64,000 nt of DNA, taken from the NCBI GenBank assembly GCA_000091205.1, contig AP006492.2. One strand, written 5' to 3'. Positions 2,911 to 60,245 of this stretch are shown in pieces; within the stretch, counting starts at the first letter, position 1, and each line of letters starts with the position of its first letter. The position numbers and the translations under genes are program-made. The DNA comes from Cyanidioschyzon merolae. Lineage: Eukaryota. The notes below the pieces were generated by a model. The model saw only the letters and a list, made by a program, of their open reading frames with translations. It was not told the origin of the DNA and did not search any database.

Positions 2911-3059
2911 GCGAAAGTCACTCTCCGTCGGAGAAGTTCCCCAACTTAGGGCGTAAACAAGCGCATTCATTTGAAGAAATGAAAAGCCAGGGGACCTAAA
3001 GGACATGGAAGCCGAGGAGGCTGAAGGGCCGGTGTCGCCGGCTCCCGCAAAATAAACGA

Positions 3060-3410
3060 GCGGAATCCTGTTCTCGCTGACCATCGAGCGAAGAAGAGAG
3101 GAGATGGGCGAAACAAGGCATTTGTCCTACGGGGCGATGAAAAGACTAATGTGGCACAGAGGGCACAAATTCTGATAATCATGGCATTAATGAGTTCCAT
3201 CAGAGGCACCAAACGCATGGAGTTTGTGAAACGAGAAATTAACACTGCAATCAGTATCAGCGGATGTGCGGTTCTGAGGAAGAGGCCTCCGGAGTTGAGA
3301 TAATCCAAATTTGTGGGGGAATTTCTCAAGGTGGAATTCCACGGCGACAAGTTGAAGCCAGTAGTAAGGGGCCGGCCGAGAACGACTGAGAGGCGTCTGC
3401 ACATCGGTGG
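3060..3410 (+). pseudogene. 3' fragment of a family-A TnpB/Fanzor-like ORF, immediately downstream of IR-A.
   Basis: Translation 'KRMEFVKREINTAISISGCAVLRKRPPEL*' followed by '..[21 protein letters not shown]' is homologous to the C-terminus of 26406..27143 ('KQRMEFVNRGFNAAISIRRCAVLKTR...KLKPIAGGWSKKTGRRLHVGV'). It contains an internal stop. Confidence 0.6.
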
Positions 3411-3523
3411 CGGACGTTTTGTCTAGGGCGGGCGGTGCGCCGCTCACCATCAAACTGCACCGCCTATACAACGTTTGTCGCTCGCAAAGCATTCATTGTT
3501 TTCGGTGTGTAGAGCGTGGGTAT

Positions 3524-8379: not shown

Positions 8380-10978
8380 AGAAAGATCAAACGTATACAA
8401 TTTCAGCTTCCAGGTGCTACTATCTACAGGAAAACTGTAGAAGGGAGCCTTTCCCAAGAATCCAGCTAAGCTTCGCTAGAATGCGTCAGAAATTTCACCC
8501 CGCTAAAATGAATATCGTTGAACATGAACGATCGCTCCAACGTGGATCGCCGTTTCCAGGGTTTCGCTGACCCATGATCGCTAAACATACCCAAACGGTT
8601 GCATCGCTCTGGATATAATGTTTAGAGTTGTCTATGTGCTGCACTCGATTAAATGTCAAGCTCCCTTACTATTGTTCGATCGCTCGAAAAACACCCTGTG
8701 ATGACGAAACGCTCTGGGACCGTGACTAAAACGGACTTTCTGTCAGGCACCCCTGCGTTTTTGCGTGATATTGCCGACTTGTACCAAATAATAAAGCACC
8801 ATTATCGTACTCCAAATGCCCAAGGGAACCGTTCCCCGTGTATATATACGGCGTTCCTGCCTTACCGTGTTGCTGACTGCAAAAAATTGGGAACTTTTCT
8901 CGAGGCGGTGAACAACTGCCCCTTCGCCCAGCCACTGAGTTTCTTTCATCGGAATTGCTCGGCGTTTTAGCAGATTGCGCGCATTGGAGACTAAGCGATT
9001 TCCTCGTTATTTTTTTTGAAATAAAGCTGCTGGGCGCACTGGAAGCACAGAACATTTCCTGATGTTCGTCGGGCGGTTCAAGTCTCGGTAAAGAGAGTGC
9101 ACGCGCACATTTGTTGCGGAAGAAATTCCATCTCAGCAAGCCACGCACCTTCTATCGCCTCCCAACCTGACGTTCGACCAGCTTACTGTGCACCTTTCTG
9201 TGCGTCCAGGTCTGTTTATCTCTCCTCTCATCTGGCGGTTTCCGGGTCACCCATGATTTTGCATTTCTTTATGTCGTACTAAATTTCTCAATAGGAATCG
9301 CAGAGAATCGATTCCTGCACAGGCTGTACCATTCGTCGAAAGTGCAGCAGCGTAGCTCTCGTGCTTTACAGCACGTCAAGCGAATATGCTCCTTTCAGCA
9401 AAGGACTCGTCTTGTCTTACATTTCGTTTTCAAGGTCATTAAAAAATAGTCCGAATGTATGCCTCTCGTTCCGGTACAATGAGAACGGTTAGCGACTCAG
9501 AGCGGCATCAGCCACTCGAGCCAAAGATTATCGGCTTGAGTCATTGTGACATTCTTAGACACTCTGGCTGTAGTGAACTTAGCATCAGCCTCTGCTCGAT
9601 GCGAAGTTCAGAGCATCGACATGGGTCCTGATGCCGTCATTCCACTTGTTGGTATGCATCCTGGCTCCTTCCATGCCTGATTCACGTAATTAGTCAGCTC
9701 TGAGAAAACTGAGCAGCTTCATCTGCCTGTTTTCAAGCCCTCGGCTCCAGTCTATTGATTTAGAGGTACTGCCACGGCCTATATGCTCTGCAACCGGGGT
9801 TCCACGCGCACCGCAAAGTCGTTTCCTGCATCTACATTAAACGGCAGAGAATTCATCTAGTTCTTCGACGCACTCCGCGCCCTCACAAAAGACATGCGGA
9901 TGGATTTGCACTCGGTCGCTGCCCACCCCGCAGACTTCTTTCAAGTTATTCCATTAAAATGAAAGTCTCTGTTCGATTTTTGCCACTGTTCCCTCCAAAG
10001 TCCCTCGAATCCCTCATAATAGCTCGAAGAGGCCAGCCTTTGCTCACTGAGAAGTCCATGCAATACGGTACACCGGTTTCTGCCGTAATATGCTGACCCT
10101 CGATGTAAGATATATGGACCAAATCGAGTAGACGCTATAAGAGACAATGCCACTCGAATTTGGGGAGGGAGCGTACTCAGATCTGGAAGGTTTCGTCCAG
10201 GAAAACCTTGCAGCACAAGATGGAAGGAACACGTGCAGAAAGTTTCAACCATCCTCATGATATGACTTCTGTCGGCCGAATGCCGAGAGCAAGACGAAGA
10301 ATAGGTATGATAGAAACTGGCTCTCGCTATCGTTGCGGCATCCCATCTGCCACCACCGGCTCGCAATTTGCTTCCATCGATGTCGCAAGAGCCCTCTCCG
10401 TCAAAGATCGCTTAATTCCGCCCGACGCGGGTAGGCACAACGGGTACTGGGCCAAGAGTATGCGCTTCATACAGCGCTCGAGATTTAGCGGGTGCATGGT
10501 TTTGTTTTGTGGGTTAGCTTGATACTTTTCGGCACCAGCGATGAAGGTACTTTCATTATCGATGTGGCATGAGCAGACGACAACGTATTCTGGGAAGCAC
10601 GTGTTCTGATTTCTGATTCTGCGATGACGGCGCTTTACATATTCCACCCTAAGCATCAGTCGTGTTAACTCACGAAAGGTCGATTGAAACATTTCAATGG
10701 AATGCGGACAGCTGGCGTTCTGCATCGAGAGTTCGTACACAGAGTTGTGAGACGGGGAGCTTCAGTTCAAGGCGAGCGGAGCGACATTCCTCGAATGAGG
10801 AGGTACACGGTGCCTAATGGCATCCTGCTCCCTAGTTTTGGAAGATTCTCCCGGGTGAAGTGTTTTAGCAGGGAGTCTTTGATTGCGTTTCCAGAATAGT
10901 CTTTTCGCTTGGAAACTTTTCCTCTTCTGTGTATCCTCTTCGACAGTTCAGGGGAAATTTCCATGTTTTTCTTTTACT

Positions 10979-12172
10979 GTGCGAGGTGGCATGGATGCGG
11001 TGGCAACACTCCATGCCCGGTTTTCTCTCGAAATACAGACGCGATGGACAGGCGTTGATACAGAAACTCGCTCCCTCCTATGTATACGTCTCGTTCTACT
11101 TGAGGATCCATTCCTCACCTTTCTCGAACTGGGAGCCCCAACCGACCGGAGAGCTCGTTTCCGCTCGTTTCCGCCCACGAGCCGAGCAGCAACACAGCAG
11201 TTCCTGTGCACCAATAGCAGACAACGCATTGTCGAAGAACGATTCGCCATCGAACCGAGTCGCGGATGTAAAAGACTCGCCTGCGCATTGGTGCCCATGG
11301 AAATGGCGTTCGCCAACAGAGCAGATGCGTTCGACTGAACTCGACCGGGGCGAATAGGCTGGTACGAGGAGCAGCGCAGCGCCAATGTCACCTGCGTGCT
11401 CGTTGACCTCTTCAGGGTGATGGAAAGCGACGTTGACGCAGAGTCGCACGGAGCCGTGTAAGAACGAGACGCCGTGGAATGCTGCGAAGAACAAGCATGA
11501 GGCGTTCAAGACTTCGACCCGTTTTCCGACGCAAAGCAAAACACACGACTCAGTCGCCGTCTGGGCAGATACTCTCGGAATGCGCGTGTGTCGCTTCTCT
11601 GTGAACACTTGTTGCTCCCGCTCTGGGTGCCCGTACACATGTCCCCCGTTTCTCCCGAACGAGGTCTCATCGAGTGTGACGAACATCTGCCATCTGCATG
11701 ATAAGCGTTCGCATGCCCCCGCGAAACTGGCAGCACGGAGCTCAGCGCGGAACGTTCTCGCACAGAGGCGCGTTTTTTCCTGTGTCCATGTGCGTCCCTT
11801 TATCACCGTCCGTTTCAACTGTGCGGAGATTGCACACCTTGTGTCTCTTAGATGCTATTTCGCAGATAATATATGTGGAGTGGAACGCATTCATGTCGGG
11901 AATGCAGTGCAGACAGAGCCAAATGTGCTCTGTCTGGTGAGTACGACTTGCAGCAAAAGGACCACGAGAACAGCGGCTGATCTACCTGCCGACCAGAGAA
12001 TACCTGACATGGACAATAAAGACCGTTTTCTTGGCAAGCTAGCACAGACGGCAGGAAGTGTTCCCGCGACCGTTCTCCCACCTACGGGATACAACCTTTT
12101 GTTGAATATTCGCGAGGTAAGAAAGGTATAGCAAAGAAAGCCGTGCTGGTACAGGTGTTCAAGTATTTATTT
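10979..12172. repeat. IR-B left arm (about 1.19 kb), an inverted repeat partner of 13527-14712.
   Basis: Paired ORFs have identical lengths and near-identical sequences on opposite strands: 11433..12131(+) against 13566..14264(-), 232 aa with about 6 differences; 11096..11818(-) against 13879..14601(+), 240 aa identical. The nucleotide ends were aligned by hand: the left inner end is '...ggtgttcaagtatttatttatctgtgg' and the right inner start is 'agtaaatacttgaacacctgtacc...'. Confidence 0.85.
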
Positions 12173-12606
12173 ATCTGTGGGAAATAGAAAAAGATCAAAG
12201 TAGACCGCCTCTATAGAAGAGCAACTGTGTACGAAGGCCTCTGCCTGAACTATATGCAGCACCTAGATCCAATCATTGAGAATACCGTTGCACGTTCGAC
12301 ATGTTTCTAAAGACACATTCTAGATACGCACACGTTCGCAGATGTTTCAGGTATTTGGATGCTCGTCGCGTGTCCGCCAGCAGCCTCATTGAGGAACAGC
12401 TCATTATCCGCTTGACCAATTCTTTCCAAAAGCAACCGATTCGATGTGCGCCTACGATGCGCTGGGGGTCGCCCACGGCATGTTCTAAATTTGGTTCCAA
12501 GTTTGTCCTTGTTATTACAGAATTGATCGGATTGGGTGCAGCGGCGTCCGGCGCCACCGCAGTGCCGAAACGAATGAAGAGTCGTCTTCGTCTAAGAGTA
12601 ACAACC

Positions 12607-13266
12607 ATGGTTACGACGTCGATCAAGCTGCAAAAGCGTCTCGCGGCAGCTGTTGCCGGGGTTGGTAAGAAGAAAATATGGGCTGACCCGGCAGAGATCG
12701 AGAAAATCGCTCTTGCGAACTCACGCCAGTCCGTGAGGAAGCTGCTACGGGATGGCGTCCTTGTCCGCAAGCCGCCAGCAATGCACTCGCGTGCGCGTGT
12801 ACGTGAGCGCCTTGAGGCGAAGCGCAAAGGTCGCCACACAGGACCAGGTAAGCGGAAGGGTACAAGGGACGCACGCTTGCCCCAGCGCGTCGTTTGGATG
12901 CGGCGGCAGCGCGTTCTACGACGTTTGCTGCGCAAATATCGCGCGCAGGGTAAAATCGATAAACACCTCTACCATGAGCTTTATCTCAGGTGCAAAGGCA
13001 ACGTCTTCAAAAACAAGCGAGTGCTTATGGAGCACATACACCGGGCTAAAGCAGAGAAAGCACGTGAGAAGGCCATTTCTGAGCAGCTGGAAGCGCGCCG
13101 TATGAAGAACAAACTCCTTCGCGAACGTCGAGCAAATCGCGCGGAGGAACGCCGGTTGAAGGAAGCAGGCATTTCAATGGAAACTACTGAGCGAGAGGGT
13201 GAGACTGCGAGCAGGTCTCGGCGCCGACGTGGCCGCCGCGACGAAGCACTTGCCGCTGATAGCTGA
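12607..13266 (+). CDS. RPL19: 60S ribosomal protein L19e.
   Basis: '[112 protein letters not shown]' matches the L19e consensus essentially end to end (the 'KRKGRH.G.GKRKGT..AR.P' core). ATG is at 12607. The ORF-track extension from 12301 is an upstream in-frame artefact. Confidence 0.9.
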
Positions 13267-13526
13267 ATGCGCTTAAGCACAATGCGGACGGCTTCGTTCC
13301 CGGTAGCCTGTTACGCAGCATCTGGAATCCTCGTCGAATGACATACCAAACTGAGGCACCTAAGAACTTGCATCCCTGATACTGAAACGCAAGTCTATCG
13401 AGTTCATCGGTCCGCTTCCGCGCTACATTGTACTCCGGCGGTCAGCAGCAGCTCGATTGGACAGCGCACAAGAAGGCACTTTCACTCTACCAGGGACGCT
13501 TTAAGCGTCTTGTTCTACTCAGATCA

Positions 13527-14712
13527 GTAAATACTTGAACACCTGTACCAGCACGGCGTTCTTTGCTATACCTTTTCTATCTCGCGAATATTCAACAAAA
13601 GGTTGTATCCCGTAGGTGGGAGAACGGTCGCGGGAACACTTTCTGCCGTCTGTGCTAGCTTGCCAAGAAAACGGTCTTTATTGTCCATGTCAGGTATTCT
13701 CCGGTCGGCAGGCAGATCAGCCGCTGTTCTCGTGTTCCTTTTGCTGCAAGTCGTACTCACCAGACAGAACACATTTGGCTCTGTCTGCACTGCATTCCCG
13801 ACATGAATGCGTTCCACTCCACATATATTATCTGCGAAATAGCATCTAAGAGACACAAGGTGTGCAATCTCCGCACAGTTGAAACGGACGGTGATAAAGG
13901 GACGCACATGGACACAGGAAAAAACGCGCCTCTGTGCGAGAACGTTCCGCGCTGAGCTCCGTGCTGCCAGTTTCGCGGGGGCATGCGAACGCTTATCATG
14001 CAGATGGCAGATGTTCGTCACACTCGATGAGACCTCGTTCGGGAGAAACGGGGGACATGTGTACGGGCACCCAGAGCGGGAGCAACAAGTGTTCACAGAG
14101 AAGCGACACACGCGCATTCCGAGAGTATCTGCCCAGACGGCGACTGAGTCGTGTGTTTTGCTTTGCGTCGGAAAACGGGTCGAAGTCTTGAACGCCTCAT
14201 GCTTGTTCTTCGCAGCATTCCACGGCGTCTCGTTCTTACACGGCTCCGTGCGACTCTGCGTCAACGTCGCTTTCCATCACCCTGAAGAGGTCAACGAGCA
14301 CGCAGGTGACATTGGCGCTGCGCTGCTCCTCGTACCAGCCTATTCGCCCCGGTCGAGTTCAGTCGAACGCATCTGCTCTGTTGGCGAACGCCATTTCCAT
14401 GGGCACCAATGCGCAGGCGAGTCTTTTACATCCGCGACTCGGTTCGATGGCGAATCGTTCTTCGACAATGCGTTGTCTGCTATTGGTGCACAGGAACTGC
14501 TGTGTTGCTGCTCGGCTCGTGGGCGGAAACGAGCGGAAACGAGCTCTCCGGTCGGTTGGGGCTCCCAGTTCGAGAAAGGTGAGGAATGGATCCTCAAGTA
14601 GAACGAGACGTATATATAGGAGGGAGCGAGTTTCTGTATCAACGCCTGTCCATCGCGTCTGTATTTCGATAGAAAACCGGGCATGGAGTGTTGCCACCGC
14701 ATCCATGCCACC
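13527..14712. repeat. IR-B right arm, an inverted copy of 10979-12172.
   Basis: See the left arm entry. The outer end is near '...catccatgccacctcgca' (14693-14712). Confidence 0.85.
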
Positions 14713-16439
14713 TCGCATAGTTAAGGGGCACAAGAAGAAGGAAGCGGTATATATAAGCATCAACGTTGCGTTCGAACTACTTTGCAAAGCGCGGTGGCGG
14801 CGCTTGGACAAGGTTTCTCGATAACAGGAAAGAAATACCGGAAACGTTTATCCGGACGATGGAGACCGACGGGATGCCAACCAGCATGCACCTTGCGGCA
14901 CGTATGCCAGAGTCGAGCAGTCAGACTCATTTCCAACCGTTCAAGGTTGATGAACAAACAGAGACTTTGTGGTCGGGGTCGATCCGTGACACTCGGCATC
15001 ATAGCCGTCTCCGTACCCCTGAATCAAGAGGGCGGTGCTAAAGACCTACAAGGAGAGCAGATAAAGCAGCTCGAATTTTCCAGTGCTCGATATGATCGGC
15101 AATCGGGCATGGTAGACGCCAGGCGGCATACCATCCAGAGGAATGGTTGCTCGAGAGCCCATCTCGACGCCCTGAGGACGGTAGCGCGCAGAGGGTAACG
15201 CTTTGTGCGCCTCACTCAGAGGGGGAGCTCATGAGCGTCAAACTGGCTCCAGCGGACGATCTTTGACAAGAACGCGTGGTGCCGAGCAGGGAACGCACAT
15301 GGTGCCGGCTCCGCAGAGGCGAGAAGCTCGTGTTCGCAGACTTTGTGGATGATGTGGGAAACGAAGTGACCGCCCAGTAGGGTCGATTGACGGTAGCCTA
15401 TAGCGCTGGACCTACTCCAGCTCACAAAGTCTGCAGTGATGCTCGCTCCCGTCGAGAGCTTGCTACAAGTTCAGGGATTGATTCTGCACGATTTCGACCG
15501 ACGCATTCACACCGTCATGCACGCAGCACGATCTCGGGAACAGGCTGAAACTTGTCGAGAAGAGGCGATTGAATTAGAGACCGTTGCACGAGATGGTGTG
15601 CGATACGCTGCTTGAACGCCCGATGGCGAGGCAATCGGAGATGCAGAGACTGCTGTGGTGTGCTTTCACCAGCCACAATGTGCTCAGGTTCTTTCTGCAT
15701 CGCGAGTTGATCGCCTCGATACACATCTGGCAATGTCTCGTGGTTCCGAAGCGCACAGCGGCTGTGTCGAGCGAACTTTCGGGAAAATCGTCTAGTTCTG
15801 CTTGTTGGCATTGCACTGACTGCCTGCAAGCTGTCGGTAAAAGCGCATCAGTGTTCAAGAACTGCCCGACTGAATGCCCGCTCGGAGCATAGCGCTGGTA
15901 CGGTATGGGTGAGCAATCGAGCGAGGCTGAAGCGGCCTGCTCATACAACGGGATCGGTTTCTCGGGGCAGAGGATGATTGGTAATGGTGTTCGAGTATTC
16001 GATCTTACTGCGTTTGAAGCAACCTAGAGTCCTGTTCCAAATAATCTCTTTTGCCCGAGATAGAACCCATTTGCATTTGCGCCGATATGAGCAGGTCCGT
16101 GTGGCAACGTGGATGAGAGCGTTCTGGAACTCGAATCAGAAAGGTGCGTTCCCTCTCAGCATCCAGCTAAACGCAACTTCTGAAACACGAAACTCTATTC
16201 GATCCGTAGATTCGACCAGCGAATATTTCGTCTTCCCTTGCTCAGAGAATTTTGTACGGATAGAGATACGATGGAACCGCGGCCTCCGGGAGTTCCGCTC
16301 ATGCACATCAACTGTTGCAACGGGTGGTGCTTTTGGCAGTCCCCATCGCACTGCAAGAACCTGGTCCATCTGCGTTGCGTCAACGAGCACCACGACAGAA
16401 GAGCTACGAATTTTCACAGTAATTGTTCTCAGATGGCGT

Positions 16440-16900
16440 CGCAACATACATTTGTTCAATGGAACGAAAACGTTTCGCGACCGGAGGATAAATTAAGCCC
16501 CACCCGCAGACGTCTCCCAGCCATTTTCGACTGGTCTCCTGCTATCGTTTCAGTTTTTATCCAGCCACATTTCGAGACTGGTAGGCCCTCCCACAAAGTT
16601 GGATCGCCTCTGCTCCGCGGGCCTCGTCTGCAGCACCGCACATCTTCTGATATTGAGAGCGGCGTTAATGTTTCTGTTTATGAACTCCATACGTTTCTTG
16701 TCGCCGCTTGTACTCTCCAGTGCAAGTGATACTCGAACTCGTGCCCTCTGTGCTATTTGCTGCTTTGCCAGCTCTCTGTACTTTTCTATTGCCGAAGCGC
16801 TTCGCTGGCTCTTCTCCATTGCGAACTTTTGAAGAGTAGACCCCAGCTCATCCCATAGATTTCTTGATTTTGAAAATGAATGCACTACTTTCTGCTCGTA
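16440..16900 (-). pseudogene. 3' fragment of a family-A TnpB/Fanzor-like ORF plus the conserved 3' tail, on the minus strand and adjacent to the IR-A right copy.
   Basis: ORF 16550..16885(-) contains 'KKRMEFINRNINAALNIRRCAVLQTRPAEQRRSNFVGGP', a RuvC-III-like 'N..NAALNI' motif. The reverse complement of 16440-16500 reads 'gggagacgtctgcgggtgggg...ggtcgcgaaacgttttcgttcc', which matches the element's 3' tail. Confidence 0.6.
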
Positions 16901-16936
16901 GGTGAGGGTCGTGCCGGAGGGATAAGGAATTGCAGA

Positions 16937-17825
16937 AGAATGAAGAAATGTGCCTCGGAGTCACTGTGTGCTGAACGCTTCAGCGACTCGGCCAGTGGTG
17001 CGATGATTACGTTCCACGATACGAAACGCTCCTTTGATGCCGTTGAAATACGGAGCCTACTGAGGAACAGAAAGCAGCCCTGCCCCGATAGAATCGGCAA
17101 AACTTCGAACGCAAAGGGAAAGGTGAATGATCACCTTGTCCAATAGAAGGACATCGCTAGACGTCAGGGGACAGTCTTCAATAATTCCATAAAGTGGTTG
17201 ATGCTATGTATGAGCCTTGACTAGGAGTCCAAACTGAGGTCGCAAAATGAATCCACTGCGGTTCGAACAGATGATGGTATCCCGTTTCTCTTCGCGTTCG
17301 ATTGTACTTAGAACGGGCTCCCTCGCAGCGAATACCCATATACGCTCGGACTGCTTCGCCAGAAGGAAGTCTCATCGACTGAAAGCAACAGACCGACGTC
17401 CCGCTGCGTTATGCGGATTGCAACATTCCAGGAATGCTGTCGATGCGGTTTCGGTGGAAGATGGCCGTTCCTGATCTAGGACTCTGTTTTTGCGACTGTA
17501 TCCCAGTGTTTTGTTTCCAGAACCACACGAACAAGATGTTGAGCCACACGGGCGCCAGTGGTGGCTACTATCGTGGCTTTTGCTTTGTTTAGAGTCATCA
17601 ACGGGGCGTTTTACACCATTGACCGCAAGCAGGCTTTGAAAATATCGGTTTTTTGGCGCTGAGCGCATATTCGTGGTTCTGTCAGTGTTCCTCAACCATC
17701 TGAGTACTGTGGTATCACTGGCCTGAAGGGGGAATGCAGTCCTCGTTGCACTGTTTAGTAAGAATTATCCTGAAGGCAATCGGTATCAGATCTGTGTGGT
17801 ACATTTCATACTGGTTTCGATCTCC
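16937..17825 (-). repeat. Repeat IR-A, right copy, inverted relative to 2026-2910.
   Basis: See 2026-2910. Confidence 0.8.
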
Positions 17826-18660
17826 TGCTATACACCACAGCGGGAGTGAAGCAAAATTGAGTCGAACGACTTTGAGCCTAAGTGCACTCTTTAAATTTGG
17901 TGAGCTGATATGATGCCTACCAGGAGTAGCAGTGCAATTTGCGTGTTTTTCACCAGACCACTAAAAAAGAGCGCATGTGCGGACCTGGAGCACGAACTAG
18001 CTCGAGAATACAGAAGTGATGTAAACCACCGATGTGTCGTGCACTGATGGTTCAGCGACATTGCAGGTCTGAGAAGCAGTATGAAAAATTTGGAGTCAGT
18101 AATCTTATCGCCTCAATAGGCCGGGAAGCGTCTTTCGGAAAGTACTCCAGTGCAAGTATTAGATACGGTGTGACAAATTTGAAGCCATTCATCAGGTCTC
18201 TTTGAGCGATGTGGATACATCTTTCAGAAACTCAGGCTAAAAGTGTTCATAATTATGGAATAAAATGGAGCTGTGCCTCTGCTCCATTCAGCGCCGGATT
18301 CGTTCATATTCTCAAAAAAAAGCTCCTTCCAGATGCTCCTCCCGTTCTGGAGAAAGTATTCGAGGAGATCGTTATGTACGCTGCATTCCGTTCACAAACA
18401 CAGCATTGCATGATGCGATAAAAACACTAGAACGCGTCCGGTGTACCGGGTTAGGCTGCTACCAAGGTTCTGCCGAACGTGGAAAACTCTAAAACAGCAC
18501 AAGACGCTGAATAGCGCGCACCGCTAGAAACAAGCCTATGCTGGTCACGTCGCGGCGCGTGGTGGAACAACGAATCCGTGTATTCCACATACACTGAAGT
18601 ACCGCATGAAAATTCCCAAAATTAAGCTGCGGTGAAATAAGTAGAACTGAAGTACTGCTT

Positions 18661-23558: not shown

Positions 23559-24839
23559 TGGCTTGAACTCACAGAGGAAATTCTCGTGCGCGCAACAAAA
23601 AGGTGATGTCACTCAAAACCAAGAAGGACCAGAGCGGAGGGCTCCATCGGACCACAGCGCTAACATCGCTGCTGCAGGGCGATCCTGCCTTTGTTTCTGG
23701 AACTCTTTGTTCACCCCAAAGATCGAAATTTACTCTAGGTGTTCGACAGTTATCGTCTCGCGTGCAGCAAACAGAAGCGATTGCTCCGGCTGAGCGAGAT
23801 AGCGACAGTCGGTTTCTCTCGCCACCTTGGGTATGGGCTAAGCTGCTTACTGGCTCAGAAAATCAACTGAGCAAACAGTGCCCGACCAATATAGGTGGCT
23901 TTACGCGCAGCGCTGCACACTGAAGCGTCGAAGTCGAACGAGAAGTTCATTCATTGATTGACTGCAGCGCTTTGAGGCAAGCCTATCCTCCGGCGCGCCT
24001 TTCATGATGGAGTGGGACGACGAAGCGACGTGACCGCTGGCATTCGCGCGATGCAGCTGCGGCAATTCTTATTTCCGACGACAAAACGTTCACAATTACC
24101 GATGGATACCATATCGTGGGATGGGTATTGGCTTTAGGGAAAGCGTCCATCATGCTGCTGCACCCTACCTGCAAGTTCCATTAATTATATTTCCGTTCGG
24201 ATACCCTGGTCGTTTCGCACGTCCTGCGGTGCGCCCGGTGTATCCTGTATGCACCCGCCTTTGAGTTTGTACCGCTAGACAAGATGCATCACAGAGAAAG
24301 AACGGTTTTGTCACACCACAGAGCGCGTTGGCCCGAGGCATCGTTCATCTGAAACGGGGTCGGGGTTCATATCATTCTGGGAGGCTGCAAGCTGTGCAGA
24401 CAGACCTACTGCCTGCGACAGCGCGAAGCGATTTAGTAGGAGTTCGCCGCTGCAAGGGGGACGCCCAGACGCTGCATGCCCCATAATTGTCACAGGATGA
24501 ACTGTGTAGCGGACGGGCTGCTCAGATCTCACTACGGTACCAGCCACTGCAGAGTTGCACAGAGCAGCTGCCCGGCAGGCTCATCGGGCTCCGGTGACCT
24601 TTCGCCTGAACGAGAAACTTTCGATGATCCGTAAAGCTTCCCTCCTTCTAACGTTTTCTGTGGAGGGGGAACGAAATTGTTATCGATCTGCTAGTTAGTG
24701 TTTAGTATTTGTTCTTTGCTCTCTACAGTGAGCTCCATAAGCGCACCTCCATATCCGGCATGCATGATACAAGACGTGCATCTTGCTGTTTAAGGGAAAC
24801 TCGATCCTGAAAAGTCGTCCTCCTTTTGTGCTAATGTAG

Positions 24840-27200
24840 AAGGTGTATTTACGTTCAAGTCATAGCAAAATTACAGTCATTCATTTCAATTGTGTTTCAA
24901 CCCTCAAGTTAGTATATTCAAGTGATTTTTCGCGGTTTGTAGCTGAGGCGCTCAAAGTGCGTTCGTTTCCTCAAATAAAAAAATAAAGTTATGGAAAATG
25001 AAGTGGAGGATCCTGAAGGGCCCGTGTTGCCCGCTGCCGGAAAAAAGTAAAAACAGTGCCGAGGATAGAGGAACAGGAGAAGACAAAGAAGCAGGGGGGA
25101 GACGTCAAAACGAACTCGAAAGACAGCACTACGACGAGAATGTAGTGCAAGCCTTTCTGCTATGGCATGTCAAGGATCCCTACAAATAAAAGTTGCGGGA
25201 GGCCGTCAGAAACCGTGTCGAGTCGTACTCCACGAGTATTCTTGAGGCTTCTTCAGGATTAAGGCATCTGGCGTAGCACAAGTATCGCGAAGTGACGGAC
25301 CTTAAAACAGTTGAGGTTCCGGAAGAATTTTTCGACGAAACCTTTATTCGTCACCAGAGGCTTGTCACAGAGAAATGTGGAAGAGAAATGAGCGAGCCTG
25401 TGTCCTCCACGAAAACTTCGCCGAACATCGCTTCAACAGAACTCGATACAGGGGAACTCGAATATTTAGAGATACGGTACAATGAATCATCTCACGAACC
25501 TGAAGAACCATGTGACCATGAACCTCAAAAGCTTCATGATACGCGCCGTGTTTGCGCTTTACCAGGGCCTCTCTCACAGAGCGAGATGAGCGATTATCGA
25601 TGGCATCACGAGCGATAATAAGAATGAACAGGAGATAGAATTCGTCGACAAGAAGAGATCACACAGGAGAAAGAAAGAAGTCTCTGCAATCTGTGTGGTA
25701 CTGGAGCTGGCCAATCCGGTAGAAAAGGTATCAGAGATGGAAAACGATGGAAAAGATGTTATTCCATCATTCTGTGTTAAATCGTGATCCTGAATCGAGA
25801 GCTCGAACGCAAAGCGGAGGTGGAGCCGGCTGTGAAAAAATGAAGAGTCGGAGAAAAGGAAGGCTTTTCTGATAGAAAAGCGCTTCAATATCGTTCCTTA
25901 ATGCAACATCGAGTGGCGCTTGATGACCATCGACTACATAGCCCTCCATGGCATCATTAGCGATATCAGTCCGGAGTTTGATGTAACCAGGAGAATTTTT
26001 ATGGTGAAAGCCAGGATACTGTTTGGAAGAATATATTCGATTTCAAAACTTTCAACACAAGCAAGAAAAGGTATCCACGGGAATCATCGAAAGCGATGGG
26101 GCATCCATATGCGTACCCTATCGGCGCTTGAAGGCGGATCGGTCTTTTCTGTTTTCGTTGTTGCCCCTAGCGAAGCATGAATAAAAGAAGGAGGCAGGTC
26201 CTATCACGCATGGGATGCAGGAGGACGTCATTGTCGTCAGCGTTGACCCTGGGAACAAGTATATCATGGCAATCGCAGTATCCAAGTCTGGAAAAGACGG
26301 CATTGACTGTAACTTACGTCAAAAAGACATGCAGCTTTTGAAGCTCTCAATAGCGAAATATTACCGAGAGTCCGGAATAATGCATGCAAGGAAGAAAAGC
26401 GAGACGTGGAATTGAGGAGTGAAGGAGCACCTGGAAGCGATCAGCCAGATGACGAGCCGAGGAGCGGACTTTCAAGCTTTTCTGGAATTGATGAAAATTC
26501 GCGCTGCTCATTACGAGGCGCTGTGGAAAGAGTACACAGAGACCTCGTGGGCTCGTCAGCGTACGAGCCTGTGCGGAGAAAAGAAGCGTGCATTCACCAA
26601 CTTCTTCAATCAGTTGGGTGCCCTCAAGGTAGTCAAGAGTCAAAGGCTCGTAGCAGCGTGCGGAACAGGGCGCTGGGCGTCCAAAAAGGGAACATTCCAG
26701 CTCCATCTACAAGAGCGTACAAAGAGTACGCACATCGTTTTCTCACAGTACCTATGGATGAGTTCCGAACGTCATGCATACACCATGAGCTGGGGTGTAC
26801 GCTCCGGAGGGTCGTGACGGGAAAGTGTCGGTTGGGCTCTGATGATATCGAAAATTACGGAGAGCTAATGGAACAGAAAATTGAAAGGAGAGCGAAAGTT
26901 CGAGGACTACATGCATTAGTGAGTACAAGCAGCTGCAAGCAACGTATGGAGTTCGTGAATCGAGGCTTTAACGCTGCGATCAGTATCAGGAGATGTGCGG
27001 TGCTGAAAACAAGATCCGCGGAGTTGACAAGAGCCAAGTCTCTGGGGCAATCTTTCAGACTCGAAATGTGCAAGAAGAAGCTGAAGCCGATAGCAGGCGG
27101 CTGGTCGAAAAAGACTGGGAGGCGTCTGCACGTCGGTGTATAGACATAAACTCTATGGTTGTAAAGGATTCGCCGTTTCTTTCATCCTCGGGGAGATTAT
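24840..27200 (+). mobile_element. Family-A element, copy 1 (about 2.4 kb). It encodes a decayed TnpB/Fanzor-like RuvC nuclease, frameshifted and with internal stops.
   Basis: The 5' region matches copy 2 ('agt.tattcaa.tgatttttcgcggttt.tagc...ataaa...gttatggaaa.tgaagtggagg'). ORF pieces show a RuvC-I-like 'VVSVDPGNKYIMAIAVSKSG' (26215..), then '..KKRAFTNFFNQLGALK..RLVAACGTGRW' and 'AYKEYAHRFLTVPMDEFRTSCIHHELGC' (the TnpB 'YKA...V.P..TSQ.C..CG' zinc ribbon), then the RuvC-III-like 'KQRMEFVNRGFNAAISIRRCAVL' (Pfam OrfB_Zn_ribbon consensus '..dRDvNAAiNIlrrg'). The 3' tail is 'gggaggcgtctgcacgtcggtg...ctctatggttgtaaagg'. Confidence 0.65.
26215..27143 (+). pseudogene. TnpB/Fanzor-like nuclease ORF remnants of copy 1 (RuvC-I through RuvC-III), split across at least two frames.
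   Basis: ORFs 26215..26415, 26419..26817 and 26406..27143 together carry the RuvC-I, zinc-ribbon and RuvC-III motifs listed for the element. Frame changes near 26700 indicate inactivation. Confidence 0.6.
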
Positions 27201-27959
27201 TCAACGCCCTTGTCGGATGGAAATGATGCACAGAACCGCTTGCTCTCTTAAAGCCTTTGATTCTATTCCAAACTTTTCACTAGGTTATAGCCTCGGCATT
27301 CCAGGCTTAGCTAGGAAGACTTACGGATTTCAACGTAGTTTAAGCACCCGAGATCGTCTACTCGGATTGGCTCCATTGAAGCTTTTTGTGGCTGGAATTC
27401 GTTACGTGAGCAGAATTAGCATTATTCGAGACCCACTAAGACAAGGTTTCATAAAATAACCCATATTATTCTCCGACTTATACATACAATCTTCCGCTCT
27501 TATCTTTTCCTAACATTTGGTAAGGTAAATCATGCATTCCACAAGTCTTCGAGTTTTGTGTTTTGAGACAGCTCGGGTGCGCAACAATGTGCGCCTCTGA
27601 ATTGACGGAAGAAATATTCCACGTCATCGCTTGACGACTTTTTACCAAGAGCATCCCGGAAGTTTACATAATCTGTCATTTCAAAAACTTAACTCCCTTC
27701 GGAACAGAAATCCTCTTTTCTCGAGGGCCGCTGACGAATCGTAATTCCACTACAGACGCCTTTCACGTGCTATGCTCTCGGAGGCTCCACTTTCTTCTGT
27801 TTGCATGGGAAAGTTCATTCGACTCGGACGTAGCTCGTTGTGACGATCCCTTTCAGTGGAGCGTGCGTCAATGCTACGCGAGATTAGAGCAGAGATGAAT
27901 CGAAATTTCACGGCTTGCTCTCAGTCTGGGATTTTCGTTCCGGTGCTTGTGTGACCGGG

Positions 27960-28560
27960 TTTAGCATCGCTTTTACGAATCTTTTTTAATGGGAGAGTGT
28001 GCGCTTCCATGTGCAGCGGATAGAGTACATGCTGATCGGATCTCCTGGAAGAAATCCGTGATCGCATTGTGAGGCACCTGGTGGGTAAACAGAGGAGCGC
28101 ATCCAAAGCAGCCTCCTATATCCCTCAAGTGCATGTACATAGCGATAAAGCAAGCGATCGCGCGCTGCAGGGCAGCGATCTAAGGAGAAGGAGGAGATGT
28201 GGTGGACGTATGCGAATACCTGACCACAGGCAAATGCCACCTCTGCGAAGGGCGCATATGGGTTGTACGCAAAGAAAATGAAAATCAGAAGCGAAACGTA
28301 GATCCTAACTGCCGCCTATGCATAGAACGCGTCTACAATAGCCAGAAAGTGCGAAATGGAGAGTTAAGCACTGAGATCAACATCCTTCGACTGCTGGCAA
28401 CAGAGCTGGAGAGACTGGAGATACTAGCTTCATTAAAGCTTGAGATAAGGGAGAGGAAAAAGAAGCAGTCGAACAAAAGGACCACATTTGCTGATATTGG
28501 TATCCATGACGAGAGACCCAAAATTTGGTGTGTATGCCTTGGTTCGTAAAGTGAATCCGC
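27960..28560 (+). pseudogene. Family-B TnpB-like fragment B1 (zinc ribbon plus a degenerate RuvC-III).
   Basis: ORF 28199..28549(+) reads 'DVCEYLTTGKCHLCEGR...VDPNCRLC...RNGELSTEINILRLL', giving the TnpB pattern TSxxCxxCG...CxxC...'NAA.NIL'. It is homologous to 46873..47493(-). On the opposite strand, 27986..28240(-) 'GASQCDHGFLPGDPISMYSIRCT' matches 47038..47616(+) and 62971..63330(+). Confidence 0.5.
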
Positions 28561-31550: not shown

Positions 31551-34500
31551 CACGTTTCACGGAATCGCTGCGTTTGCAGCGCGTGCATCTGGATCCTCTG
31601 TGGCACTTGGCAGTACAATGCATGCCATCTATACGAATTTTTCGGACACCGCGAAGCGGACTCAGAATCGACTGGCTTTCGTCAGATGCCGATCATTGTT
31701 CGGAGAGGCAATATATTTGTGAAAGATAAGCGGCAGAGGGGGAAGAATCATTTGATGTGCTTCTCAGACAGTTCCTGAAGTACTCTACCTTGCAAACTTT
31801 ACCTGTTGCTCCTCGAGATGCCAGAGGAGAACGTATCCGCAAATCCTTCGGCGCTGCTACAACAGTCTGAGGATAACTTGGTACACGTCTTTTAACCTGG
31901 GTACACACTCTAAAGTTTGCGTCACAGCCCATTGCCATCTACGAATCCAGTCCTTGCAGTCCTTTTCTCTACCTGCTTCATTTTTCCCGCTCGTGTCTCA
32001 GGCATTACGAAGGTCTCTCACGTCACTCCAGCTCAGTTGGCAGCGGTCGACGGATGCTGATGGCGGCGTTAATGCCCTATTTCACGGCTTCTGGATATTG
32101 TCAAGGTTCTACATGCAGAGGCAAAAGTTGCGACGTAGGCTTCGCTTGCCATTTCCATCTTCCTTTTATATAGCATCAGTGTCCACGTCGTAACCATTTC
32201 GCCGTACGGTTGTCAGGTGTTCTCATGTGTCCGCCACATGGCCGCCTCCGAGGACTGCAATTTGGGGCGTAAGCGCATGCTTCAACACTTGGTATATGCC
32301 CTTGACAGGAACAGATGGGTCCCGCTATACGCTCCTCCGTTTCCAAGCCTGGTACCGTACACTGTTATCACGGACTTCTTCGGGGCAATGTGCTTGACGA
32401 GTACTGGATATGCTGAAGATGCAAGCGCGCGCTTTTATATTCAAAAGACGACTAATAGAGCGTGATGTTTTCATGATGAAACAATTATCGGCAGGAAAAT
32501 CCAGGCTGGAGAGCAAGTCAAGAAATTCGATCCGTTTACTCCTGCATTGTGCGAAGCGTTTACGCACGCTTCTCTGAAAACAATCTTCGCAATGGCTCAA
32601 GTCCGGGCCAACGACCCTTTCCCATGCAAACAGAAGAGATGGAAGGCCCTGGGACATATCCCGTTAGCAGTATCATGCCGGTGTGGAATGCCTTTCGTCA
32701 ATGGCCGCAGAGTAAAATTTGTCTTCCGAACAGATTCGATTATTGGACGTAAGGAGATCATTGAACTTTTGGCGCGACCTTGCAAAGAAACCTCCGAGCG
32801 TTGACTTCTGGTTATTTTCCTTGTTAATCCAGCAACATAAATTTTTGCATCCTCGAGTTGCTCCGGAACCGTAAAATATTAAAAATGAAAAAGACGTGAC
32901 GTAAATATATAACCCGTAATGAAAAGAGAAGAGCGACACTCATTCTTATGAACTGGATGATGCTATCCGATATCTTTTTACGAACCCTTATTCGAGTGTG
33001 TTGCAAATCATCGTGGCCCCGGAGAGGTGACGGATTCTAGCGGCAAATATTCGAAGGCGCCGCTCTACAAAGAAGGAAGACAATCCTAAGTCTGGTTAGG
33101 AAGCCGTATGCACTTATTCCTGCATTTGGATTGTCGATGTCGTGCATCTAAAAAATCTCAAAATAAACTTACAGGCATGGACAGAGTGAGCAGTTCCGTG
33201 TACCATTTTAGTATAAAAGGGTTAAGGAGCTGGGTTTCCGCGCCTAGATGGCTGGGAGTTCAACCATTTCTGATTCGATGAAAAATGAAAGCAAGGCAAC
33301 GAAAGAAAACATTATCTGAACGAACCCTGTCGTTTGGTTTACTGAAGTTGTATTCACCACATGCATCAGAAATGACTGCAAGGGACTGAAAGTGCGACTA
33401 ACATCCAGTAACGGATATCTATAAAGAAACGGTTTTCGGGAGGATAACTTTGGGAGTCGCGCCTGACGTAGGGAGTGAACAAGAATTTTAGGCCGCTATG
33501 ACGTGACATGAGTTTCACGGACAGCGACATATCAGGCGACCAACAGACCTCGTGTTGGAAAGACGATTACCAGTTTGTCTGCTTCTGTCGATCATACCAC
33601 GAAACTAAGAAGCAGCTTTAGAAATAGTCCTTCAGACTTTATGACGAGCAGTGCTCTATGGATGACGAGAAGTTTCTGCAAGAGATTCTTCCGTTCACAA
33701 ACATAAGCCGCATCAGTATTCAGGCATCAAGAGGGCGACGAGATCGCATTCCGAAGCACGGTTACCAGAAGGGTTCTATCTAGAGAAAGCAATGGGGAGG
33801 TATCCCGACTGAATCTCCGCTCATAAATTCTCGATCATCTCATTTCGGATAAGGATGAATTGGTGCATGTCGCCCGAATGCATGCTGGACGCCGCCGTCT
33901 GGAATCGAGTTACACTCGCGCTCCGACAGAATTCAGATTGCGCGCTCGTTTTCGTACGCCGCGCACGTCGATTTTCGCTTGCAGAAATAAAATTTTTTGA
34001 TCAGCGGAAGGCTGTCACTTACAAACGATCACCCGTTGTGCGATTGATATCGTCTATCGGGACACCGCCCAGCCTTCCGTATTCCTATGTCCATTTCCCA
34101 CCAGCTCCCACCCATGCCTCCTCTAGATGCTAAATTTTTAGTTCGCGAGTTCCGCCATACCCCGACCGTGCCGCAAGTGTTCGCAATGGCGCCTGCAGCG
34201 CTCGTGGGGACGCAGTTCGGAAAGTCATGCTTTGCTCTACCACTGGGGCGTTCGCTCGGGCCGTCCTTCACCCGAAGCTGGGCTGGAACTGGTCGCTTTT
34301 CCGGGATACAACAGGCGATTTAGACGGATTCAGTGCCGGCGGCCGGAAGATACATTCTGATAGATCATAGTAATCAGTGCGCTGCCTGTACGCAGCTAAA
34401 ACACTCCCTGTCCAAAAACACACTGCGTTGTGGACGAGAGCCTCAGAGCTTACGGCAGTGCCTGCCACTTGCGGCTCGCCGAGCACTAGCCTAACGCAGT

Positions 34501-37779: not shown

Positions 37780-38230
37780 TCACAGGTCTCGAACTTCTCC
37801 CGAATGAAGTACCATCGAGTGAGAAAAGCGCCGGCCCTTTCTATAAGAAATGTGCGTGTTTCAGTGTGAAATCGATAGAGTGTTTCGCAATGCAAGACAG
37901 TATCAAAGTGAAGAGGGGGTTCTCACTTTTCTATTGGCACCTTTTCATCACCGTTCGTAACAACGGAGCGGAAACTTCACGCCCTCTTGCTTCTCACACC
38001 AAATTTGTAGGAGAACTTGGATTATGAAATGGTTTGACGACGAGATCGTCGTGGAGATACATTTTTTCAAGTTATGTTCTTGGTGCGCGACGTGCAAGAA
38101 AAGGACAAGAAGAAGGGTGGTTGAGCCATCTGCAACCATAGAATGACTGACTTGGACAAGCAAGACCGGTTTTCGCAAGCTAACGGCGACAGCACAACGT
38201 GTTTCTGCGGCCCTTTCAGTCTAGAATATG
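37780..38230. repeat. Family-C non-coding repeat, copy 1 (about 450 bp, about 70% identical to 55310-55760).
   Basis: Shared blocks are 'cttctcccgaatgaa...atcgagtg', 'gtttcagtgtgaaatcgat', 'aagaagggt.g.t.a.ccatctgc..acc.tagaatga.tga' and 'g.ttttcgcaagc.a.cg.cgacagca'. Confidence 0.5.
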
Positions 38231-44059: not shown

Positions 44060-45395
44060 CCTGTTAGATGTATTCTCTACTGAACAGTGCACGGAGGACT
44101 ACATTCCTTATTCAAATCAGTCATAACACAGTTCTTTGATGGCTGAGGTACACTGCAAGAAAGACGTAGATGCGCTCTGCGTGAAAAACTGGTATTTTCA
44201 GTGCGCGCTTGCGGTAAATGAAAGAAAACAGTCCTTTGCTCACCTTACTAAAACCAAAAAGCGACGGTAGGAGCCACTATGGGCGTCTCTTTTTTCTCAA
44301 CAGCTTGTTCGTGTGTTCCTGTACACACTGGGATTCTGTCGCAAAAAAAGAGTCCAGTTCCACACACGGTTATTCTCTACCGGAATCGCAACACCAGGAT
44401 TCCTGAAACTCAGAGATGGGTATGAAGCAAAGGGGCGTCGGTTTGTTTTTCAGTTGATGGGAATTCCTTCGGATGAAACGGTGGTATCGTGTATGGGTAT
44501 TCGAGCAGCAGGGTGTCCATTGTGTTTACGATCGAGCTCGAAGCGAACAAAAGCATCCTTTGATGTGGCTGCAGTAGATTCATTTAGCGGCCTCAGTTTC
44601 GCTCGTACAGAGGGCTCATACCACACCACCCACTTCGTTGAATCATTGAAGACTTTTGCTCTTATGTTTGGCGAAGTTCTTCAATCGGAGAATGTGGTAT
44701 TCCACCACTAACGTTGTTTTCGAGCTTTTGCCGATTTTATAATGTAGAGCTGCTTTTCATTCCTTCGCACGCTCCGTGGTTCGACCCCATCGAAAGGGTG
44801 TTTTCTATCTTGAAAGGTAATGATCGCTACACTGAGCGAAACGATGAAGCTTTCAGCGAGCTGACACATCGGGGCACATGATGCCATTCTTCCGCAAGTC
44901 CATCTCCCTCCAGAAAGGTTCTTACCTCGGGCATAAGAAGCGCGTTCGTTTTCAAAATTAAAAATCTAAGGGATGAGCTGGGGCGCAGGCTTTTGAAGGC
45001 CCAGATAGAGAGAATGCAACGGAGCGCCTCGGCTGTAGTAAAGCCTGGAGAGCTGGCAGAGGACCAAATGGCACTGGGGGCACGAGTTCTGGAAATCCTT
45101 GCACTAAAAAATTCTACCAGTCTTGATAAACGCATGGAGCTCGTGCACCGAGACTTCAACGCCCCCATCCATATCAGGATGTGTGCGGCGCTGAAAATGC
45201 GACCCGAGGTGTTGACGCGAACGAACTTTGTGGGGCAGCCGCTTAGGCTCGAAGTGTGCAAGGAGAAATTGAAGCCGATGGCAGGGGGCCATTCGAAAAA
45301 AACTGTGAGAAGTCTGTGGGTCGTTATTTATTTACCCCCAGGTCGCGAAAGGTTTTAGCTCCACTGAGCAGCCGTGGAGCTTTCCCAGTCAAGAT
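44060..45395 (+). repeat. Third, more diverged copy (about 75% identity) of the composite unit, with an IR-A-like part at 44060-44770 and a family-A TnpB 3' fragment at 44830-45395.
   Basis: By hand, 44080-44230 aligns with 2091-2240 ('aacagtgca.cgaggact.cattcc...tgaggtacactg...tattttca...cttgcggt.aatg'). ORF 44993..45358 reads 'DKRMELVHRDFNAPIHIRMCAALKMRPEVLTRTNFVGQPLRLEVCKEKLKPMAGGHSKKT' (RuvC-III 'RDFNA..I'). The tail is '...cccaggtcgcgaaaggttttagctcc'. Confidence 0.6.
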
Positions 45396-46869: not shown

Positions 46870-47620
46870 TGTCTAGAGCATGTGGGTGTTCCTCTTGCCA
46901 TCAACTCCAGCCTCTGCGAGCGTTGACTTCGACGGCTTCCTTTTCCTATCTAATATCTCGGTCCTTAAACTTGCAGGTCGCTCCGTTCCATCCAGCTCAG
47001 GTGTCAGCAGTCGAAGGATATTGATGACAGCGCCCGTTTGCTGATTCTCGTGCCTCCGGATCTTCTTCCCGCATTCCATGGACGCACGGAGTTTGCGATC
47101 TGCACTTACCCTCCCGGTTTCGTCTTCTTTGTAGACACCCTCGGAGCGCCCTTCGCACCAGTGGCACTTGGCTGTGGTCAACCGTACCCATACATCCGCC
47201 AAACATCCTCGTTCGATTGCCGGCCCGCGGCTCGTCAACCCTTGCTTCGTCACCCTACACATGTATTCGACTGGTATAGGATGCTCCCTGCGATGCCCTC
47301 CTCCATTTCCGCACCCGGTGCTGTACCCAGCGATCACGGGTTTCTTCAAGACAATCCCGTAGAAAAGTACTCTGTCCGCTACACACGCAAGCGCACGCAA
47401 GCACACGGTGTTCCATTCGATAAAGTATTTGTGGAACGCTGTTATGCACAGGATCACACAAAGGCTGGAAGGAAAATCAGACAAGCAGAGCAAGTCGAGA
47501 ACTTTCGATTCATCTGCGTTCCCGGTGCATCAAGTAGAACCGCAAGCTCTATTGGAAGCGATCGCTGCGATGACTTACGTCCGAGTCCAAGAACATATGC
47601 CATTCAAACAGCTTGAATGG
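46870..47620 (-). pseudogene. Family-B TnpB-like fragment B2 (RuvC-II-like through RuvC-III-like), on the minus strand.
   Basis: ORF 46873..47493(-) reads 'VIAGYSTGCGNGGGH..PIPVEYMCRVTKQG...VWVRLTTAKCHWCEGR...SMECGKK...ENQQTGAVINILRLL'. The pattern is YK..G, then TSxxCxxCG, then CxxC, then a degenerate 'NAA.NIL'. It is homologous to family A ('VVAYGGGH', 'AYKEYAHRF'). Confidence 0.5.
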
Positions 47621-60232: not shown

Positions 60233-60245
60233 TTGCTGGTTGTCA

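Follow-up and report, generated by a model that had tools for sequence, protein, structure and literature searches.

The question raised by this locus is what the sequence shared at the 3' ends of a repeated, TnpB-like gene represents: an ωRNA scaffold, the terminus of a mobile element, or neither. The repeats lie in a 64,000-nucleotide (nt) stretch of DNA from Cyanidioschyzon merolae (assembly GCA_000091205.1, contig AP006492.2), which is referred to as the window throughout. An earlier note on this DNA had described positions 27080-27200 as a conserved non-coding tail that follows a TnpB-like open reading frame (ORF) in every copy of the repeat. We conclude that the shared tail at 27080-27200 is a decayed relic, and that the observation is real but ordinary. 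For the family to which the repeats belong, we favour on balance the view that the tail derives from a module that would be both the right end and the ωRNA scaffold of a Fanzor1 transposon, the RNA role of which we infer by analogy with SpuFz1, GtFz1 and TnpB.

Decayed Fanzor1 copies in the window

Self-BLAST of the window revealed five repeat copies (A-E), which share their last ~300-400 nt and match each other with E values from 1e-16 to 0, far above chance. The shared 3' segment is thus real in all five copies, but its anatomy and some of its coordinates, as first described, were wrong. The copies and their parts, including the two sequence blocks singled out earlier as the conserved part of the tail (block 1 and block 2), are as follows.

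2011-3507, + strand: copy A, made up of a brief Fanzor 5' stretch, a DDE-transposase-like pseudogene and the final ~400 nt of Fanzor with a complete main-family tail
3388-3409, + strand: block 1 of copy A, with the stop codon TAG at 3424-3426 and the tail at 3427-3507
16453-17835, - strand: copy B, chimeric like A, with block 1 at 16498-16518, block 2 at 16461-16487 and the homology end at 16453
24734-27175, + strand: copy C, a Fanzor1 pseudogene element from its left end (TCCATAAGCGCACC...) through a degraded tail
27117-27138, + strand: block 1 of copy C, coding for G R R L H V G; here the ~105-nt right-end module begins
27141-27143, + strand: present in-frame stop TAG of copy C, after block 1 plus V and 13 nt before the ancestral stop site
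27154-27156, + strand: ancestral stop site of copy C, now TAT
27151-27175, + strand: degraded block 2 of copy C as placed by alignment, a remnant of the first post-stop hairpin
44072-45370, + strand: copy E, chimeric like A and B, with block 1 at 45305-45326, block 2 at 45336-45362 and the homology end at 45370
57844-60230, + strand: copy D, a Fanzor1 pseudogene, with block 1 at 60163-60184, block 2 at 60195-60222 and the homology end at 60230

Copies C and D are colinear over ~2.4 kb (73% identity by self-BLAST); the left end of C aligns with those of 30 related copies, and the homology of D to related copies begins ~85-95 nt inside the left end. The other three copies, A, B and E, are chimeric: a DDE-transposase-like pseudogene (2081-2994 in A, 16874-17765 on the - strand in B and 44072-44973 in E) is flanked by ~70 nt from the 5' part of Fanzor and by its final ~400 nt. 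The internal segment of copy E matches PF13358 DDE_3 with an E value of 8.5e-6, slightly under the gathering score. A and B compared with each other form a mosaic: their DDE parts are 95.7% identical (2011-2972 versus 17835-16874) and their Fanzor 3' parts only ~72%, a second matching segment being found at 3154-3317 versus 16753-16590, which suggests recombination or gene conversion between copies.

All five ORFs of the window are pseudogenes with stops and frameshifts, hence no present-day activity is expected of anything in the window. The translations of copies C and D show the Fanzor/TnpB hallmarks FTGxIxTDG, VDPG, DEFRTS and NRDFNAAxxIRRCA, but in broken form: among the RuvC motifs, C retains VDPG and DEFRTS, with NRDFNAA changed to NRGFNAA, and in D the motifs are mutated to GAGPG, DQFRTS and NHDFNAA. 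Similarity between the window copies is equal across the three reading frames and thus indicates neutral decay. C (26700 region) and D (59690 region) also share a 1-nt deletion frameshift relative to four related copies; it follows that a Fanzor gene which had already been inactivated was amplified.

An exhaustive profile search (1,563 cluster representatives at E <= 0.001) underlies the assignment of the protein family. The 40 related proteins found all come from JGI metagenomes; the nearest named protein relatives are those of green algae, the named family members being hypothetical proteins of Tetrabaena and Haematococcus. The family profile (37 members) matches three solved Fanzor1 proteins, namely PpFz1 of Parasitella parasitica (9cf0, E 1.6e-19), SpuFz1 of Spizellomyces punctatus (8gkh, E 9.3e-10) and GtFz1 of Guillardia theta (9cer, E 3.7e-5), and in these matches the motifs TDG, DPG, DEFRT and NRDxNAA are aligned with those of the solved proteins; the relatives carry the split RuvC triad D...E...D as GADPG, DEFRTS and NRDFNAA. 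Judged by its profile, the protein is a Fanzor1, that is, a eukaryotic TnpB-like protein, in agreement with the initial description of the ORF. Only the deep profile gave matches in the PDB, where searches with a single sequence (phmmer) or a shallow profile returned nothing. In Pfam, neither the ORF fragments of the window nor four related proteins had a match, and a weak Cas12f1-like TNB match (E 0.0023) was obtained with one distant relative. No recorded protein is identical to either of the two window ORFs that were looked up, and the AlphaFold2 model built from a shallow family alignment was poor (mean pLDDT 42, pTM 0.23). Directly before the RuvC-I motif GADPG, the proteins carry from 1 to at least 6 acidic tandem repeats of ~22 residues (..KHEEKKEAGPATQEVEDNDFVV..; P0022, P0024 and P0034 versus P0008); in the window this region lies at 26185-26260, and the repeat number differs between copies.

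Anatomy of the right end in related copies

A scan of metagenome contigs gave 80 loci, which together with three fetched earlier make up 83 loci with 91 tails, 58 of them non-redundant. One contig, which stems from Ga0078972, a metagenome of Yellowstone, matches the window at 99% identity, so the organism of the window lives in one sample that supplied the relatives; Yellowstone is the one relative-supplying sample that was traced.

In the better-preserved relatives, the right-end module is ~105 nt long. It opens with the last 14 codons of the gene, after which come a small hairpin with the stop codon in it (UAG-GGCGGG-UUU-CUCGCC-A-CUA, with variants), a conserved single-stranded linker (CACTACTGTACA, or CACUACUGUACA in the RNA form) and a long terminal hairpin, with 19 bp at most, the foot of which is the last base of the element. 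The terminal hairpin exists in two subfamilies, S1 (CACCGUUGGCGUCGUUCGA-CUU-UCGAACGGCGUU(GA)UGGUG, at most 19 uninterrupted pairs) and S2 (GGCGACAACGUUUUUC-UUUU-GAAAGGCGUU(U)GUUGUC). Among 44 copies, the coding region has a mean pairwise identity of ~0.83 (first, second and third codon positions: 0.87, 0.89 and 0.74). Successive intervals that lead from the final codons through the tail score 0.77, 0.76, 0.71 and 0.62, and from a point +105 nt past block 1's start the value is 0.29. Since homology between independent copies drops at the hairpin foot, the latter marks the right end of the element, ~65 nt after the stop codon; the flanks beyond it differ among independent copies.

The last 14 codons do not show the codon periodicity seen upstream (0.80/0.79/0.77 versus 0.87/0.89/0.74, the sample being 14 codons only), which fits a nucleotide-level constraint from block 1 onward. 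Exactly at block 1 also starts a solo tail that is fused to unrelated upstream DNA (L006:1230 and three related copies). This arrangement belongs to a recurrent composite (L006:1-4580, L015, L023 and L054, partial in L027, L052, L079, L009 and L022), in which unrelated sequence, the solo 105-nt tail, a spacer of ~745 nt and a complete Fanzor element follow one another, the unit being copied at ~80% identity. In another related copy (L007:652-800), the last ~48 nt of the tail, i.e., linker and terminal hairpin, are tandemly duplicated.

What the two shared blocks are

Block 1 was found at two sites with at most 3 mismatches versus 0 expected by chance. It had been placed just past the end of the ORF. 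In copy C, however, it is coding and lies inside the ORF, where it provides the C-terminal residues G-R-R-L-H-V of Fanzor1, and it encodes GRRLHVG in the less decayed relatives as well. The complete C-termini among the relatives end in ...GGRSKKTGRRLHVSWRRFV (...GTRLHVSWRRFV in protein P0008), and in the DNA of the relatives the stop codon is the TAG within GTCTAGGGCG; block 1 together with the spacer up to 'cTCTAtGG' was therefore ancestrally coding. Block 2 (cTCTAtGGtcgcg...) starts at the ancestral stop codon. Copy A retains this TAG, C and D have TAT in its place, and B and E have lost it as well.

Contrary to the earlier description, the two blocks are not common to every copy. In copy A, the main-family tail (GTCTAGGGCGGGCGG..., to 3507) stands in place of block 2. 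A model of the family tail matches this copy over its whole length (3389-3503, E 1.3e-13; nhmmer), and a tail-only model matches it at 3422-3499 (E 0.0044; nhmmer). In copy C only model positions 1-38, that is, the coding block, find a match (27117-27155, E 0.0066; nhmmer). Hence A, which keeps a full but degraded scaffold, is the only window copy with a whole tail, and C has a degraded remnant. The block 2 variant is restricted to copies B, D and E and occurs at none of the 83 related loci. It contains a 6-bp hairpin (GCGAAA-CGU-UUUCGC) at the same position as the first hairpin of the family, and the homology of these three copies ends ~35 nt after the stop at one common point, CCAYTGANCA| (16453, 60230 and 45370 in B, D and E), beyond which the flanks are unrelated. 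B, D and E are a local subfamily, the right end of which follows the first hairpin and the linker, at the place where one would expect the terminal hairpin to begin. The truly non-coding shared sequence thus amounts to ~30-35 nt in B, D and E and to 81 nt in A. As to the coordinates of the earlier note, the blocks do exist, but several positions were off by 15-35 nt (27098-27120, for example, should be 27117-27138), and the range given for block 1 of copy B covers block 2 instead.

Structure of the tail

Sense folds of the tail are better than antisense folds in 47 of the 48 copies (mean -27.9 versus -20.5 kcal/mol; z against dinucleotide shuffles -2.3 versus -0.9), owing to the many G·U pairs. 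As several pairs are mainly G·U, the structure is to be read on the sense strand, either as RNA or as top-strand single-stranded DNA. With the structure that we specified, 85.2% (S1) and 86.0% (S2) of the cells pair, compared with 31-57% when the partners are slid by 1-3 columns, and the terminal hairpins differ from shuffles with z values of -6.9 and -5.0. Subfamilies S1 and S2 each keep a perfect hairpin in different registers, and for this reason RNAalifold returned merely a 4-bp stem for the MAFFT alignment of all copies; 10-11 pairs were obtained in the runs per subfamily. Native hairpins are more stable than 5'/3' chimeras (on average -19.3 versus -15.7 kcal/mol, native being better in 38 of 45), the effect being mostly between the subfamilies (within them, -19.8 versus -17.8 and -18.8 versus -17.9). 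In S1, 10 pairs have changed on both sides versus 4.7±1.6 in shuffles (1/500). The covariation that one would seek in the aligned 3' ends is modest in S1 and absent from S2 and from the helices of the coding overlap. In that overlap, the GGCGUCU of block 1 can form 7 bp with AGACGUU located 13 nt downstream (83.6% paired versus 38-58% when slid), a helix that competes with a 5-bp alternative. An initial impression of covariation in the basal helix was dropped, as G/U-rich 3' ends pair promiscuously. Taken together, the structure of the tail is strong and strand-specific and appears to be maintained in two lineages, and its formal covariation is modest.

Ends of the element and search for a transposase

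In the relatives, the left end reads A|TCGCGCTCAGTGAGCGCACC... and contains the palindrome GCGCTCA-G-TGAGCGC; in copy C it lies at 24734. The left end begins with TC after an A in six independent contexts, the boundary being set by eye, and in these contexts the 5' flanks end in GCA, GAA or AGA, six contexts being too few to define a target motif. Imperfect terminal inverted repeats (TIRs) had also been proposed for the element; the motif in question, tgatttttcgcggttt (24923-24938), is situated 190 nt in from the left end, immediately ahead of the start codon. Comparison of the 80 nt of the left end with the inverted 80 nt of the right end in five copies gave scores of 12-14, equal to the shuffle mean (13-14), and thus the element has no TIRs.

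No Rep/helicase, TnpA-like Y1 or other recurrent transposase ORF was found within ±4 kb of 80 copies. At the right end there is neither a conserved CTRR nor a conserved T after the element, and a canonical Helitron was rejected for want of the CTRR terminus.

Weighing of the possible explanations

The reading that we favour is that of a right-end/ωRNA-scaffold module. The sense transcript of the ~105-nt module would be the ωRNA scaffold, presumably made with or from the Fanzor mRNA and then bound by the Fanzor protein; it would read into ~15-20 nt of flanking DNA, which would act as the guide, and the DNA of the module would double as the cis-acting end for mobilisation. The idea of an ωRNA that overlaps the 3' end of the ORF, or of an element terminus, appears sound for the family as far as its sequences go, and is not supported as a function within the window. 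Speaking for it are the profile matches of the protein to Fanzor1, the sharp loss of homology ~65 nt past the stop, the strong sense-strand structure of the stretch before that point, and an arrangement like that of published Fz1 ωRNAs. Several results weigh against this reading. The identity of the tail (0.62-0.77) is not above that of third codon positions (0.74), therefore conservation alone, which had been regarded as telling in itself, shows no selection. The tails of the window copies fold no better than shuffles (z from -1.4 to +1.0, with +1.0 for copy C). Covariation beyond shuffles was found neither in S2 nor in the two candidate helices within the coding overlap; mix-and-match comparison of copy-specific pairing in the basal helix gave no signal (8.52 versus 8.33), and an S1 core randomly mutated by the seven S1/S2 differences kept S2-level stability in 6% of trials. 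Rfam gave no match at the gathering score on the window, nor at the E-value threshold on four loci. Among the 44 non-redundant related copies, not one has an undisrupted ORF of full length that reaches its natural stop, and the four solo tails are copies of one composite, hence a single event in one lineage. Finally, one-strand hairpins that tolerate G·T fit a transposition signal in single-stranded DNA equally well.

Some of these results would be expected if the tail had no function of its own and its hairpins were incidental, an explanation that we regard as unlikely. It accounts for a tail identity at the level of third codon positions, for the weak or missing covariation of S2 and of the helices in the coding overlap, for the neutral decay of the window copies in all three frames and for the shuffle-like folding of their tails. 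It does not agree with the highly non-random terminal hairpins (z of -5 to -7), kept in different registers by two diverged subfamilies, with 85-86% of pairs formed versus 31-57% in the slid controls, with a sense strand favoured in 47 of 48 copies, or with the excess of double-sided changes in S1 (1/500 shuffles). Even less credible, and in our opinion highly improbable, is a stem-loop in the 3' untranslated region of the Fanzor mRNA that would serve 3'-end formation or stability and be unrelated to guiding or transposition. The hairpins are indeed on the sense strand and start at the stop codon, but the module reaches the exact end of homology between independent insertions, as a terminus and not an internal feature would, and it is reused behind unrelated upstream sequence; besides, we know of no comparable mRNA-element requirement for Fanzor genes.

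Somewhat more weight, although it still seems to us rather improbable, belongs to a transposon end acting as DNA only, in which the left-end palindrome and the right-end hairpins would be bound as single-stranded DNA by a trans-acting HUH-type transposase (Helitron-, Replitron- or IS200/IS605-like), with no guide RNA involved. The lack of TIRs, the left end's own palindrome and the position of the right-end hairpin at the very terminus, where strand asymmetry suits top-strand single-stranded DNA as much as RNA, all speak for it, as does the amplification of copies with a dead ORF, manifested by the frameshift shared by C and D. Moreover, Fanzors of Chlamydomonas ride in Helitrons (PMC10288648), and the nearest named protein relatives of our family are from green algae. 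Against it stand the absence of a recurrent Rep, helicase or transposase ORF within ±4 kb of the 80 copies and the lack of a conserved 3' CTRR and of a conserved T thereafter. That codon periodicity disappears from block 1 onward, and that the solo tail begins at the same point, suits an RNA module of ~105 nt better than a short site of end recognition. In every characterised TnpB/Fanzor system, to our knowledge, the right end and the ωRNA scaffold are the same DNA, so that the DNA-end explanation itself leaves room for an RNA role. On balance, the right-end/ωRNA-scaffold module is the explanation that we favour.

Comparison with known systems

The ωRNA of SpuFz1 has its scaffold in the stretch from the stop codon to the right end, followed by a variable guide, and ORF-less 'ghost' loci of the Spu-1 element share the ωRNA region (PMC10432273). 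The family described here resembles Spu-1 (Saito et al., 2023; PMC10432273) in being a Fanzor1-only element of ~2-3 kb with no transposase inside, in having variable sequence directly past the right end and ORF-less derivatives that share the right-end region, and in the many degraded copies. Spu-1 differs in possessing 30-nt inverted repeats at both ends, whereas our family has none but bears a left-end palindrome and a long right-end hairpin; in our family the module also overlaps the last 14 codons, unlike in Spu-1. Expression and protein binding have been shown for Spu-1, whereas our family is known from sequence alone.

Overlap with the coding region is a feature of GtFz1, the ωRNA of which (Saito et al., 2023, PMC10432273; Xu et al., 2024, PMC11423790) covers 17 C-terminal codons, compared with ~14 here. 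Several stem-loops precede the guide in GtFz1 and the putative guide here, and by profile the protein families are related (E 3.7e-5). Four stem-loops make up the scaffold of GtFz1, as against two clear post-stop ones in our family, to which one or two candidates within the coding overlap, unsupported by covariation, may be added. The solved Fz1 ωRNAs consist of a 7-bp SL1, at least one further stem-loop and then the guide, and the part beyond SL1 is variable and dispensable (PMC11423790). SL1 has 7 bp in the three solved complexes, a length that the candidate helix of block 1 with AGACGUU would match.

With the reRNA/ωRNA of IS200/IS605 TnpB, our family shares the absence of TIRs and the hairpins near both ends on the same strand; by analogy, a scaffold made from the 3' end of the nuclease gene and the right end, with a guide taken from the flank, would be a further likeness. 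The differences are the eukaryotic host, the Fanzor1 protein and the lack of a TnpA-like Y1 within ±4 kb of the 80 copies. The Fanzor-carrying Helitrons of Chlamydomonas (cited in Craig, 2023, PMC10288648) are similar in having no TIRs, a 3' hairpin and an A|TC left end. Unlike Helitrons, however, the elements studied here have no CTRR and no conserved T, their hairpin is at the very end and does not stop ~10 nt before it, and no RepHel gene was seen near the copies. It is conceivable, if doubtful, that a Fanzor1 lineage resides here in a TIR-less, hairpin-ended eukaryotic transposon, the right-end hairpin of which would have two roles, signalling transposition as a single strand and forming the final stem of the ωRNA; the arrangement would then be the eukaryotic equivalent of TnpA and TnpB in IS200/IS605.

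Associated and unrelated repeats, neighbouring genes

Besides the Fanzor copies, the window contains the following repeats.

24069-24733, + strand: accessory repeat ('long form'), ~670 nt, directly upstream of the left end of copy C and colinear with L014, L037, L008 and L067 through the tail
27793-28482; 31959-32637 (- strand); 46928-47611 (- strand): dispersed repeat family
37783-38216; 55311-55745: dispersed repeat family
15544-15766; 53611-53834 (- strand): dispersed repeat family

The accessory repeat, whose 5' boundary reads TTTCCGATGACAAAACGTTTAC, abuts the left end on its upstream side in copy C as well as in no fewer than 10 related copies, and is found alone after the right ends of other copies (L083:1855, L038:6694, L014:1416 and others). 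The similarity of its outer end (GATGACAAAACGTTTAC) to the right-end hairpin's 5' arm (GACAACGTTTTTC) may reflect a short direct terminal repeat. The three dispersed repeat families have 65-67% identity and are unrelated to the Fanzor copies. A 1.2-kb inverted repeat (10973-12177 / 13520-14724, 98.8% identical) flanks the gene of ribosomal protein L19e (12301-13263); the one ORF of its arms that was scanned gave a weak remnant of a DDE_3 transposase (E 0.009).

Two of the relics adjoin host genes: the right end of copy A lies 17 nt upstream of the start codon of 2-oxoglutarate dehydrogenase E2 (3507-3524), and copy D ends 10 nt before a methyltransferase ORF (60230-60240). Both have the same orientation as the adjoining host gene and lie within its 5' region. 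Galdieria (53-70%) and further red algae figure among the best named matches of the E2 protein, which would suggest a cyanidiophyte-like alga. Comparison with an empty site was attempted for copy A at the orthologous E2 locus of a related organism (L084), which is without the element and the intergenic DNA of which is unalignable.

Implications

For the window, the annotation is largely settled: it contains five dead Fanzor1 relics, in which block 1 is coding, the non-coding tail measures 30-80 nt and TIRs are absent. At the level of the family, the analysis provides a testable ωRNA candidate of ~105 nt, with defined 5' and 3' limits, from an uncharacterised Fanzor1 clade. If the candidate is genuine, the B/D/E subfamily, which ends after the first hairpin, would imply a minimal scaffold devoid of the last stem-loop. 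An architecture with terminal hairpins and no TIRs could, in addition, shed light on the mobility of Fanzor1 elements. The host, present in one Yellowstone metagenome at least, may be a red alga and thus perhaps thermophilic; should an intact member of the family exist, or be amenable to reconstruction, it could yield a heat-tolerant compact editor.

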